DNA of 64,000 bases, taken from the NCBI RefSeq assembly GCF_053078305.1, contig NZ_CP166879.1. One strand, given 5' to 3'. The position numbers were made by a program, and so were the translations under genes. This document shows positions 54,794 to 56,183 of this stretch, piece after piece. Below the pieces are notes generated by a model. That model worked only from the letters and a program-made list of their open reading frames with translations, did no database searches and had not been told where the DNA came from. Numbering within the stretch: position 1 is the stretch's first letter; the number at the start of each line of letters is the position of its first letter.

Positions 54794-56183
54794 TAACGTT
54801 TTCCTTATTGATGCTATTCATTTTGGACATACAGATCACTTTTGATGATTTGCGGAATATCAACAAAAATGATTGCGGCAAATCCTATCACCTGGCGCAA
54901 TAAAAAATCACGAAAAATAAGCTGAAATAAGGACTCAAAAAACAACTAAGAGTTATTGTTTTTTCTTCGAACGGAGACGTACCTAACTTACTAATACACA
55001 ATAATTTAAAAGTCCCCACCCCTTCTCCCTGGGTGAGAAAAAATCTAATTCAGCGAATATCTGAAATGATATGTAGTTTTCTGTACAGAATCATTTCAGA
55101 TATTCGAATAAAACAACAAGGTTGATAAGTTACGATTAATTTAAATCTTATTATTTGATTAACAAAACATCAGCATTACTGCATCTTATTCTCTATATCT
55201 TTTACGCCGGGATAGATTCTTTATGGTCATTACGGGCAGGCACCATTTCATTATATTACCATTTACATTCACTCTTGTAACCCTTAAGAGTTATATAAAA
55301 GGCAATAGTTCTTGCTCATGGTAATACTGAGATCGGATTAACCGTGAGGTTAGCTATATAGAGAGAGCTCTTTGGCTTTGCGACAATTAGCTTAAGCAGC
55401 CACATTATGTTTGGCTTACCGTTGAAAGGTAGAAAGAAGAGCAAAATGGTTCACAAGGTTTCATTCCCATCTAATAGCAATTACCCCTATACATCATCCC
55501 TTAACGTACTCTGGGCTTCATGAAAATGTTATTCAAAATTAAAGATTGTAATGATTTTCATAATGTTGTTATCATTCTGCAGCAAAACAACCTAACTCAA
55601 TGATTATACTTTATTTTTTATTCGTTAAGAGTTGATGTTTTTTACAGAAAGCACTACATTCGCGCCCATTTCCCACCACAGGAAAAGCTGAAATAATCTT
55701 AAATGACTGTATTAACCCTTTTTCCCAATGTCAGCACTCTTAAATATCGTTGTTTTATTCTTATAAAAACGGCTTTTTTGACATAAAAAGTAATAGGTAC
55801 AATCATTATGCAGCATTTACAACCTTAAATCATCGCAAAAACAAAATTACACAGAATAAAACCCTGCCCATCATCTTTCGGTAAGAATTAAATTACTATA
55901 TTACCGATTAACACCAGTATGAATGTAAATTCAATTGTTATACATGTGATGAATGTCATATATTGTGCTCATCGATTGCAGGGCATCGCTATTCTTTTAG
56001 AGATACAGATATCACGCTGTTACTCTCTATATAAAGAACACATAAAGATTAGTTGTGTTACTGCAGTTGTTATGTCGCATATGGAAAGCCCATTGTTACA
56101 TCTTTAGTAAGAAATTTTTTCACTTTCAAAATTTTTACTCCAAGAAGATGGGCTGTTTTGCTGCAAGCAATTGAGTTAGTGCA
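54794..56183. promoter_or_regulatory. AT-rich 1.4-kb divergent intergenic control region
   Basis: No convincing ORF; strongly AT-rich, lying between the minus-strand tps/lipid operon and the plus-strand regulator and fimbrial operon. Confidence 0.6.
55053..55105. promoter_or_regulatory. Perfect 17-bp inverted repeat (candidate operator)
   Basis: CGAATATCTGAAATGAT-N19-ATCATTTCAGATATTCG, ~260 bp upstream of the tpsA start; no adjacent T-run, so not a typical terminator. Confidence 0.5.

Follow-up and report, generated by a model that had tools for sequence, protein, structure and literature searches.

The locus analyzed here raises a simple question: why do two divergently transcribed operons of an acquired island stand 1390 bp apart, and does the DNA between them serve either of them? 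Within the window, by which we mean the whole stretch of 64,000 nucleotides that was analyzed, this interval (cf. Table 1) is the longest one left uncovered by ORFs of at least 70 or at least 100 amino acids in any frame, the next measuring 411 and 726 bp. The interval is non-coding. Its longest internal ORF has 62 amino acids, against a mean longest ORF of 62.7 amino acids in shuffles of the spacer sequence, so that its ORF content is as expected for non-coding DNA of such composition. Furthermore, each of the six frames holds 23-41 stops, and an NCBIfam scan of all six returned no match. Both bounding starts are exact, i.e., the GTG of otpA (tpsA) at 54793 on the minus strand and the ATG of a 207-amino-acid ORF at 56184 on the plus strand, and the equivalent interval is unannotated in all 380 matching E. 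coli genomes (no PGAP feature there in the genomes listed). The initial annotation, which had described 1.39 kb without a credible ORF, AT-rich compared with the flanking coding DNA and lying between divergent operons, was thus borne out. The GC content of 0.332 compares with 0.495 for otpA, 0.513 for the pilin gene and a mean of 0.486 for the window (sd 0.044 for 1390-bp windows, 1.2% of which are as low), and the gene labels hold as well, with TpsA, TpsB and lipid genes on one side of the spacer and a regulator-fold protein and a chaperone-usher operon on the other. The low GC content passes 56183 and runs through the 207-amino-acid gene (GC 0.319) to about 56850.

The locus is horizontally acquired and its island is composite. 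It is an OI-47/S-loop 71-type E. coli island that abuts a tRNA-Ser (34194-34281 of the window) and was found, always in single copy, in 7% of the complete E. coli genomes (380 of 5426), which agrees with the foreign origin proposed in the initial annotation. OI-47 is kept in the EHEC O157:H7, O55:H7, and O145:H28 lineages, and its cargo comprises GrvA, an EAL-domain protein (VmpA in the literature), the OtpAB secretion system, and the Loc6 fimbriae. On the otpA side, the genes code for a TPS-domain TpsA, a ShlB-type TpsB, and an ACP/ketosynthase cluster; otpA itself, named in bioRxiv 10.1101/2020.04.13.038984, is uninterrupted (1270 amino acids) in Sakai and other strains. On the other side, NCBIfam identifies Loc6 as a Stb-like classical chaperone-usher system, which rules out the ECP-like operon that had been guessed from gene order. 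For two Loc6 genes, Z1536 and ECs1277, the literature reports induction by lettuce lysate and upon transfer to 14 C. The two halves also occur apart, since the otp/lipid cluster is found without the fimbrial module in Enterobacter-type contigs, and the regulator-fimbrial module is found elsewhere without otp. The DNA upstream of the Enterobacter-type clusters, which were reached via TpsA homologues, is unrelated to the spacer. A diverged copy of the island, hereafter L008, has structural genes that are about 80% identical; a profile search of genome contigs with the regulator alignment revealed no more distant island copies.

Table 1. Positions of the features discussed in the text (numbering of the window)
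Feature	Position	Strand	Remarks
otpA (TpsA)	50981..54793	-	window copy with a nonsense codon (TGG to TAG) at 52703-52705
Low-GC tract	54700..56850	.	~2.15 kb, GC ~0.32-0.33; spacer and gene of the 207-aa regulator
Divergent intergenic region	54794..56183	.	1390 bp, without ORF, GC 0.332; otpA (Sakai ECs_1282) on one side, ECs_1281 orthologue on the other
otpA-proximal conserved module	54794..55166	-	~370 nt, ~69% vs L008
Shine-Dalgarno AAGGAA	54801..54806	-	7 nt before the otpA GTG (54793-54791)
Candidate otpA promoter, extended -10 TGaTAGGAT	54882..54890	-	invariant in E. coli lineages and L008
Palindromic hairpin	55054..55106	.	perfect 17-bp arms; 19-nt loop with 4-5 further inner pairs
Central spacer	55167..55822	.	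~650 bp, AT-rich, unalignable between island lineages, no conserved ORF
Regulator-proximal conserved module	55823..56183	+	~360 nt, ~60% vs L008 and L012
Candidate regulator/Loc6 promoter TTGTTA-N18-TATATT	55935..55964	+	consensus scan; sigma-70-type
Gene of 207-aa protein, ECs_1281/Z1539 orthologue	56184..56807	+	annotated hypothetical; first gene ahead of the Loc6 genes
Loc6 chaperone-usher fimbrial genes	56850..62808	+	pilin, chaperone, usher, StbD-like 444-aa subunit, second chaperone

An interval of this kind might still encode an unannotated small RNA, as the initial annotation had suggested, or a small protein. It is long enough for either, it contains one highly structured element, and OI regions have been reported as relatively rich in sRNAs (PMC8565820). 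Nevertheless, an Rfam search at E up to 1 gave only two noise matches to microRNA models (E 0.57-0.84), the number of terminator-like sites was zero, and the central region is unconserved between island lineages. No sRNA of OI-47 is reported in the O-island review or the other literature searched, and the supplements of Hücker 2017 (Sakai RIBOseq/RNAseq) contain neither a small gene nor an ncRNA at Sakai coordinates 13486xx-13500xx. As for a small protein, the ORFs of at least 25 amino acids are either stopped or frameshifted in some lineage or show amino acid changes about as frequent as base changes. The single exception, an ORF at 54771-54881 (minus strand) with five nucleotide changes and one amino acid change, has a different frame in L008. 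A 16-codon uORF overlapping the otpA start was rejected because its frame continues without a stop in L008. Between lineages, the same DNA gives a tblastn signal in each of the six frames, indicating that conservation is at the nucleotide level and not coding. The suggestion of a small RNA is thus unsupported, and we consider either kind of hidden gene very unlikely. The literature and supplements searched yielded no entry for the locus concerning transcription start sites, sRNAs, ChIP, hns mutants, or modulons.

If the interval is not a gene, is its sequence under constraint? Between the window and Sakai, the Jukes-Cantor distance of the spacer is 0.0995, within the range of dS for the flanking genes (0.077-0.113); such a neutral rate means that sequence-specific function may be lacking over most of the 1.39 kb. 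Comparison with L008 shows how the conserved part is distributed, as the two spacers can be aligned at both ends only, giving the two modules and the central spacer of Table 1. Among E. coli lineages, divergence reaches its minimum at 54794-54950, and 55600-55700 and 55800-55822 are among the most variable 50-bp windows of the E. coli copies. Length and AT-richness are retained (1386-1393 bp in the E. coli genomes listed; 1293 bp and GC 0.368 in L008).

A substitution rate equal to dS and a central 650 bp that cannot be aligned between lineages would also be in keeping with debris, i.e., with a spacer that is the junction scar of two independently acquired modules, possibly with a decayed gene in it, and whose ends would carry ordinary short promoters while neither its length nor its middle would serve a function. 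The composite nature of the island fits such an origin, and a candidate for the decayed gene exists (an EAL gene of about 255 codons). In three distant relatives, an EAL gene (253-259 amino acids) lies directly upstream of the homologous regulator gene and is preceded by an AT-rich divergent spacer of 440-490 bp, the sum of about 1.25 kb being close to the 1.29-1.39 kb found here. However, tblastn of the EAL proteins against the spacers of the window, Sakai, L008, and L012 produced noise (best E = 0.5), the six-frame NCBIfam scan and a sensitive blastn against relatives found nothing, and two further comparisons, the spacer frames with that of L008 by tblastn and the spacer with plasmids by blastn, were negative, which leaves a gene remnant unsupported. 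Moreover, two lineages with saturated synonymous sites both retain about 1.3-1.4 kb, and no deletion variant occurs among the 380 genomes; in view of the bacterial deletion bias, this would be unexpected for useless DNA, although the retention of length could merely reflect that deletions are rare. We therefore regard an origin as debris as a minority explanation, rather unlikely but to be taken seriously.

The reading that we favor, and think probably correct, is that the interval is a non-coding junction and at the same time a shared control region of the composite OI-47/S-loop 71-type island, with a functional module of about 360-370 bp at each end. That it is a control region had been proposed beforehand. 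The two operons are transcribed away from each other, and promoter-like hexamers conserved in position across two to three lineages are found at both ends. Both promoters are consensus-level predictions, and the spacer as a whole has nine promoter-like sites in a consensus scan versus 8.9 in shuffles. At the otpA end, the extended -10 element belongs to that block of the spacer which is conserved best; it is preceded by a T-rich stretch and would place the transcription start near 54875, with a 5' UTR of about 82 nt. The Shine-Dalgarno sequence and the GTG of otpA are conserved in L008, and an ATG two codons downstream is not. This module would thus consist of a core promoter, a short leader with its Shine-Dalgarno sequence, and, about 175 bp farther upstream, the conserved palindromic hairpin.

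This hairpin is the only strongly constrained element of the spacer and, like the neutral rate of most of the 1.39 kb and the unconserved middle, had escaped the initial annotation. Its 9-bp core (TGAAATGAT/ATCATTTCA) is invariant in every lineage, and the fold has a z of about -6 on either strand. Four of the 22 pairs are altered on both sides, 86% of cells are paired, and the covariation score, which derives from six distinct sequences of two deep lineages, is 0.139 versus 0.076 and was equalled in one of 500 shuffles. The element is absent upstream of the Enterobacter-type otpA, and searching genome contigs for the pattern of the palindrome core gave only chance matches in unrelated phyla. 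A metagenome scan with a 24-mer returned zero; this 24-mer is exact for the L008 type only, E. coli having C and not T at its first base, so the result is uninformative on E. coli-type copies. In a second scan, eight E. coli-type copies without any new hairpin variant were found, together with 44 unrelated chance matches.

The hairpin might act as RNA, namely as part of a long otpA leader starting upstream of 55107 on the minus strand, where it would be a 5' stabilizer, an RNase III site, or an attenuator. Apart from the four doubly altered pairs and a covariation score exceeding 499 of the 500 shuffles, several details point this way: (i) both single-sided changes (Sakai, O145:H28) leave G-U when the minus strand is read but A-C when the plus strand is read, (ii) the Sakai fold is stabler on the minus strand (-28.5 versus -23.3 kcal/mol), (iii) L008 lacks the outer stem but gains an inner GUGUG/CACAC extension, and (iv) homology with L008 reaches only about 60 nt beyond the hairpin on its upstream side, as would suit a promoter right there. 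On the other hand, G-U on the same strand in two cases may be chance (p about 0.25-0.5), the comparison comprises six distinct sequences from two deep lineages only, and template switching can co-correct the arms of a DNA palindrome without selection. The core is, furthermore, invariant in sequence and not in pairing alone, which points to sequence-specific recognition, and upstream of the hairpin there is no positionally conserved -35/-10 pair, the conserved extended -10 being located downstream. Neither does the hairpin resemble an intrinsic terminator, as its stem is A/U-rich with few G-C pairs and no adjacent U-run. A T6 run follows the stem by 11 nt on the minus strand of the window (none on the plus strand), and in L008 it lies about 6 nt past the core stem on the minus strand, where the last core pair is an A·G mismatch. 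A role of the hairpin in an RNA leader is accordingly possible but, in our judgment, doubtful.

At the opposite end, TTGTTA, TATATT, and their 18-nt spacing are kept in three lineages while the intervening sequence varies, and in each of them this candidate promoter precedes the ATG by 220-231 nt. Transcription would start near 55971 and produce a leader of about 212 nt ahead of the regulator gene and probably of the Loc6 genes, whose co-transcription is assumed from the gap of 42 bp between them. Within the predicted leader, no convincing conserved structure was detected (consensus energy -4.5 kcal/mol), and a small hairpin over the regulator start codon has two compensatory pairs, with folding no better than that of shuffles. 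A Pap-type Dam/Lrp switch, in which two GATC sites about 100 bp apart lie within Lrp sites upstream of the fimbrial promoter, was not recognized either: GATC occurs in the spacer only at 54834 and 55331, with 497 bp between the two sites and the promoter on the regulator side a long way off.

Could the regulator-proximal part instead be a promoter switch that inverts as fimS does? Like fimS, it is situated upstream of a fimbrial operon and has imperfect inverted repeats (55578-55601 and 56146-56179; 20 nt, 85% complementary), which flank about 550 bp upstream of the regulator ATG, and phase variation by inversion is frequent in fimbrial operons. Unlike fimS, it shows no inversion, since all 380 genomes match unbroken and in the same orientation over at least 80% of the query. 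The repeats are not conserved as such, the left one being full of substitutions elsewhere and the right one coinciding with the conserved ribosome-binding-site region, and the neighborhood contains no recombinase gene. These findings effectively refute a switch, which we hold to be next to impossible.

The gene that opens the plus-strand operon is under strong constraint in the comparison with Sakai (dN/dS 0.018). Its product has no Pfam match at E ≤0.001 and no match in NCBIfam or, by sequence, in the PDB; GerE appears at E of about 0.03 only, in two of the 11 members of its family. The AF2 model of the 207-amino-acid protein (pLDDT 83.5, pTM 0.79) has a beta-alpha pattern followed by four helices, that is, a receiver-like alpha/beta part and then a four-helix LuxR-type DNA-binding domain, which is the architecture of NarL/FixJ proteins. 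The best Foldseek matches of the model are full-length EvgA, RcsB, FixJ, NarL, and VpsT, with a probability of 0.97-1.0 for most top-scoring matches and TM up to 0.55. As judged from this model, the protein has an atypical NarL/FixJ-type response-regulator fold. The family alignment was read against the model strands for the canonical phospho-acceptor residues, namely the DD pocket, Asp after beta3, Thr/Ser after beta4, and Lys after beta5. D14-D15 proved invariant or nearly so, and S86 hardly varies; two of the 11 members have Glu in place of D67, and an invariant Arg107 occupies the position expected for Lys. A relationship with CsgD was dismissed, as hhalign revealed none by sequence (probability 0.3%).

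What the AT-rich DNA between the modules may do is best considered together with the whole low-GC tract, which can be inferred to be a candidate platform for nucleoid-protein binding. H-NS regions are characterized by an AT content well above that of the genome over at least several hundred base pairs, and here a GC content of 0.332 in the 1390-bp spacer, and of about 0.32-0.33 in the 2.15-kb tract, compares with 0.486 for the window. Runs of at least four A/T occur in the tract at 26.5 per kb (11.4 in the rest of the window) and TpA steps at 97 per kb (51 in the rest). Sites resembling the high-affinity H-NS motif (TCGATAAATT-like, up to two mismatches) number four in 2151 bp versus 5.8 ± 2.5 in composition-matched shuffles; this carries little weight, because the motif is not obligatory for H-NS binding. 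Of segments that are strain-specific or shared, H-NS-bound regions make up about 30-38%, and bound upstream spacers diverge faster than unbound ones (PMC4720273); the divergence of the present spacer equals that of local synonymous sites and can be explained without any special acceleration. Silencing of the tract by H-NS, a nucleoid protein of the kind that the initial annotation had in mind, is, on the evidence of its composition, plausible. Under the control-region reading, and by extension from the established behavior of AT-rich acquired DNA and of cryptic chaperone-usher operons in E. coli, H-NS/StpA would most likely coat the 2.1-kb low-GC tract and keep both operons quiet in standard conditions, while the roughly 650 bp between the modules would be AT-rich filler that drifts neutrally in sequence with length and composition kept. 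Specific activators, for which the adjacent regulator, GrvA, and RcsB are candidates, would lift the repression, as would environmental cues, e.g., low temperature or contact with plants. A further proposal would go beyond this: the 22-pair hairpin with its core would be an undescribed cis element of OI-47-type islands, acting either in RNA, as a leader or a processing site, or as a cruciform operator bound by the NarL/FixJ-like regulator, and, in addition, the length-conserved spacer of about 650 bp would be selected as a nucleoprotein scaffold coupling or insulating otpAB/lipid and Loc6. We rate this combination as improbable.

The control of otpAB and loc6 is not addressed in the literature searched, and coordinates are now available for two candidate promoters, a conserved hairpin, a dispensable-looking spacer, and a regulator (ECs_1281/Z1539) hitherto annotated as hypothetical. 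Set beside known systems, the region reads as an ordinary long AT-rich divergent control region of acquired DNA, notable only for its length, one hairpin, and an unrecognized regulator gene. With xenogeneic silencing by H-NS, it shares an accessory island, a low-GC tract exceeding 2 kb, and the enrichment in A-tracts and TpA steps, binding being inferred here. In the E. coli common pilus, the regulator gene ecpR (matA) likewise comes first in a chaperone-usher operon and has a long AT-rich region upstream, on which further details are reportedly given by Martinez-Santos et al. 2012. EcpR acts with IHF, and H-NS takes part in the regulation, on the basis of a statement and a cited title in PMC10038029. 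The two systems differ in that Loc6 is Stb-like and not ECP, the 207-amino-acid regulator has no membership in the EcpR or GerE families detectable by sequence, no EcpR-type direct repeat was identified in the OI-47 spacer, and the far side of this spacer is taken by a divergent TPS/lipid operon. Modules of fimbrial regulators linked to c-di-GMP are exemplified by mrkHIJ of Klebsiella and fimZ/fimY/STM0551 of Salmonella. The gene order of the distant homologues of the 207-amino-acid protein (EAL phosphodiesterase, regulator, chaperone-usher fimbriae) is comparable, and OI-47 also possesses an EAL protein and GrvA, but its EAL gene is not beside the regulator gene, and the 1.39-kb spacer is found in that place; a common origin of GrvA, the EAL protein, and ECs_1281 in one ancestral fimbrial control module is suggested. 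The last parallel is present in the window itself, where the spacer between csgDEFG and csgBAC (curli; 27924-28649) is the second-longest AT-rich gap (726 bp, GC 0.337) and is similarly ORF-free and divergent between surface-structure operons, one of which opens with an atypical response regulator of the FixJ/LuxR type (CsgD, 216 amino acids, versus 207 here). It is bound by H-NS, IHF, OmpR, CpxR, RstA, and MlrA, and curli are best expressed at low temperature. The OI-47 spacer is about twice as long (1390 versus 726-754 bp) and accessory (7% of genomes), whereas csg is core (>99%), and its promoters are predicted ones, in contrast to the known sites of the csg spacer.

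The spacer between otpA and the gene for a 207-aa protein (54794-56183, 1390 bp) is delimited by the GTG of otpA, a TpsA gene (54793, minus strand) and the ATG of the 207-aa ORF (56184, plus strand). At a minimum ORF length of either 70 or 100 aa, it is the longest stretch in the 64-kb window left without ORF coverage in any frame; the next-longest ones measure 411 and 726 bp. The longest ORF within it spans 62 aa, as compared with a mean of 62.7 aa after shuffling of the same sequence, and its GC content is 0.332 versus 0.486 for the window, a value equally low in just 1.2% of 1390-bp windows. 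ORF coverage, shuffles, and GC content therefore bear out the AT-rich, ORF-free stretch described in the initial annotation, with one extension: the low-GC tract continues past the spacer and across the 207-aa gene (GC 0.319) to about 56850. Each ORF of at least 25 aa within the spacer carried a frameshift or a stop in at least one E. coli lineage or showed amino acid changes about as frequent as base changes, with one exception, the frame of which is altered in a diverged copy of the island. A six-frame scan (23-41 stops per frame) yielded no NCBIfam matches, and no PGAP features lie beneath the spacer in matching E. coli genomes. The region had also been interpreted as horizontally acquired, divergent control DNA with room for an unannotated sRNA, and the sRNA proved unsupported: an Rfam search of the spacer returned two microRNA-model noise matches (E 0.57 and 0.84), a consensus scan detected no terminator-like sites, no entry at the corresponding Sakai coordinates was present in the accessible part of the supplements of a Sakai RNAseq/RIBOseq small-gene study, and the O-island reviews covered, which treat GrvA alone for OI-47, give no sRNA for this island. 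The consensus scan found nine promoter-like sites in the spacer versus 8.9 in shuffles, i.e. no excess.

The acquired origin is borne out by the position and distribution of the spacer. It was matched in 380 of 5426 complete E. coli genomes, every time as a single, unbroken copy in one orientation, and its O157:H7 Sakai copy is flanked by ECs_1282 and ECs_1281, with grvA close by, which corresponds to O-island 47 / S-loop 71. The island starts at a tRNA gene, just past which follow the lipid cluster, otpBA, the spacer, and Loc6. In the literature, ECs1282-1283 are OtpAB, a genuine two-partner secretion system of unknown function, and ECs1276-1280 form the Loc6 chaperone-usher cluster, which is Stb-like according to NCBIfam. 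An invertible switch was rejected, with no inversions among the 380 genomes and no conservation of the inverted repeat that might flank it.

Candidate control elements and the island boundary in the window
Feature	Position	Strand	Basis or detail
tRNA-Ser (GGA)	34194-34281		core/island boundary, adjoining csg/ycd core genes
Candidate otpA promoter, extended -10 motif TGaTAGGAT	54890-54882	minus	best-conserved block of alignment A2
Palindrome/hairpin	55054-55106		17-bp perfect arms; 4-5 further pairs within the 19-nt loop
Candidate promoter TTGTTA-N18-TATATT	55935-55964	plus	consensus scan

Several copies of the island show signs of decay or divergence. A nonsense mutation at otpA codon 697 (TGG to TAG, 52703-52705, minus strand) splits the window gene into 696- and 554-aa ORFs, while Sakai and several other strains have an unbroken otpA (1270 aa), and the gene is annotated as frameshifted, from another cause, in the near-identical ETEC6335 copy. 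In the latter (L001), the large ketosynthase gene and grvA are also annotated as frameshifted (6641-9197 and 27631-28442), and in O145:H28 RM12761 (L006, 5702-7389) an IS3 element has left the Loc6 chaperone truncated and stands in place of the usher start. On two Enterobacter-type contigs, the otp/lipid cluster directly follows the polysaccharide-export genes wza-wzb-wzc, the spacer measures only some 290 bp, and otpA is reduced to N-terminal fragments, once followed by a transposase. The 444-aa StbD-like gene (putative tip/adhesin, 60788-62122) differs from its Sakai counterpart far more (dS 0.269, dN 0.036) than its neighbors do (dS 0.02-0.11, dN 0.002-0.010), pointing to either recombination or diversifying selection.

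Homologs of the 207-aa protein are very few; one of them (56% identity) is encoded on four gut-metagenome contigs with the same gene order as in the window (tpsB, tpsA, spacer, regulator, fimbriae), though the DNA identity of the structural genes is only 77-83%. The spacer of this diverged copy (1293 bp, GC 0.368) is alignable with that of the window at its ends only, i.e. over 54594-55166 on the otpA side (69%) and 55823-56377 on the regulator side (60%). These alignments take in the start of otpA and of the regulator gene as well as about 370 and about 360 nt of spacer, respectively. The central 650 bp showed no similarity to the diverged-copy spacer at the DNA or translated level. Since the ends alone align, yet comparable length and low GC are kept, sequence is conserved at the ends of the spacer, and length and composition are conserved throughout.

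At the otpA end, a T-rich stretch precedes the candidate -10 motif, whose predicted leader spans about 82 nt and carries AAGGAA 7 nt ahead of the conserved GTG. The hairpin, the sole strongly non-random fold of the region (z about -6 on either strand), lies about 175 nt upstream of this motif. Across its six distinct variants, 86% of cells are paired and four pairs have changes on both sides. Two outer pairs change from A-T to G-C between the window and Sakai types, and in the diverged copy (L008) an inner pair does the same while the outer stem is lost and GUGUG/CACAC is gained. The covariation score was 0.139 versus 0.076 (1 of 500 shuffles), with slid controls far lower, and both single-sided changes give G-U on the otpA-sense strand only. 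These comparisons support a constrained hairpin, albeit in a small sample of six variants, though template switching inside the palindrome could mimic the apparent compensation. The 9-bp core TGAAATGAT/ATCATTTCA is invariant, which suggests sequence-specific recognition besides pairing in a constrained hairpin. A role as an intrinsic terminator was rejected. Eight additional E. coli-type metagenome copies contained no new variant, the hairpin was absent from the unrelated DNA upstream of Enterobacter-type otpA genes, and its core pattern occurred elsewhere in public genomes at chance background only. A third half-site, TCCGAAATGAT, lies with one mismatch 30 nt into the regulator ORF (56214-56224, minus strand); three half-sites in the window are within chance (17 of 100 shuffles).

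At the regulator end, both hexamers of the candidate promoter and their 18-nt spacing are shared by three lineages although the sequence between the hexamers differs, and the distance to the ATG is 220-231 nt in each lineage, as would be expected of a genuine sigma-70 promoter followed by a long leader. Short conserved A/T-rich blocks occur about 35-190 nt upstream of the predicted start site (55971). No convincing conserved structure was found in the leader. Two pairs of a small hairpin across the regulator AUG (56157-56188, UUUG.UGCA/UGCA.UGAA) change in a compensatory manner in L008 and a further lineage (L012); this hairpin was rejected as weak (about -6.5 to -6.8 kcal/mol) and not above shuffles.

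Between the window and Sakai, 9.3% of spacer sites differ versus about 2% in the flanking genes. However, the Jukes-Cantor distance of the spacer (0.0995) falls within the dS range of the otpA, regulator, pilin, and usher genes (0.077-0.113), so the spacer is not accelerated and its mean drift equals the neutral rate. Divergence is low at 54794-54950 (beside otpA), at about 55950-56100, and in the final 34 nt, and high at 55000-55100, 55600-55700, and 55800-55900. In strain Z1322HEC0005, the spacer is mosaic (equivalent of window 54975-56050) and combines both main types, being Sakai-like by the hairpin and window-like beyond, indicating recombination breakpoints within the spacer. Length differences between E. 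coli copies occur in short homopolymers (A6/A7, T5/T6) and in a (GA)2-4 repeat (54936, 55360-55367, 55637, 55841, and 56120), tracts that are probably not long enough to drive phase variation at high frequency.

ECs_1281, a hypothetical protein by annotation, is under strong purifying selection (dN/dS 0.018). The 207-aa protein had no match by sequence in Pfam, NCBIfam, or PDB. Its AlphaFold model (pLDDT 83.5, 11-sequence alignment) was placed by Foldseek among the full-length NarL/FixJ response regulators EvgA, RcsB, FixJ, NarL, and VpsT, and the label 'regulator' thus holds at the level of predicted fold. The protein belongs to a small, unnamed NarL/FixJ-fold family. Its distant homologs (23-32% identity, four loci) stand between a gene for an EAL protein of about 255 aa and chaperone-usher fimbriae, with a 440-490-bp AT-rich spacer followed by a divergent GrvA-like gene and a gene of about 160 aa beyond. 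OI-47 has all these parts in a changed order, and its 1.39-kb spacer occupies the place of the EAL gene, no remnant of which was detectable in it. The comparison suggests a single ancestral fimbrial control module as the origin of GrvA, the EAL protein of OI-47, and ECs_1281.

Taken together, the best explanation of the spacer is that it joins the parts of a composite island and serves as their shared control region, in which two putative promoter modules would be separated by AT-rich filler. AT-rich acquired DNA is bound by H-NS, and H-NS silencing is typical of cryptic chaperone-usher operons in E. coli. By this established knowledge, the entire low-GC tract is a likely H-NS/StpA target, and the nucleoid-protein silencing proposed initially is plausible. 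The H-NS consensus motif was not enriched in the tract beyond composition. In one study, 30-38% of non-core segments were H-NS-bound and bound upstream spacers evolved faster (PMC4720273). Loc6 genes are reportedly induced by lettuce lysate and upon a shift to 14 C, which fits conditional expression. This kind of element is well known. The present example is undescribed and of unusual length, with one conserved hairpin worth testing. A useful comparator within the window, its second-longest such stretch, is the csgB-csgD curli control region (27924-28649), likewise ORF-free and AT-rich (726 bp, GC 0.337) and found in over 99% of E. coli genomes.
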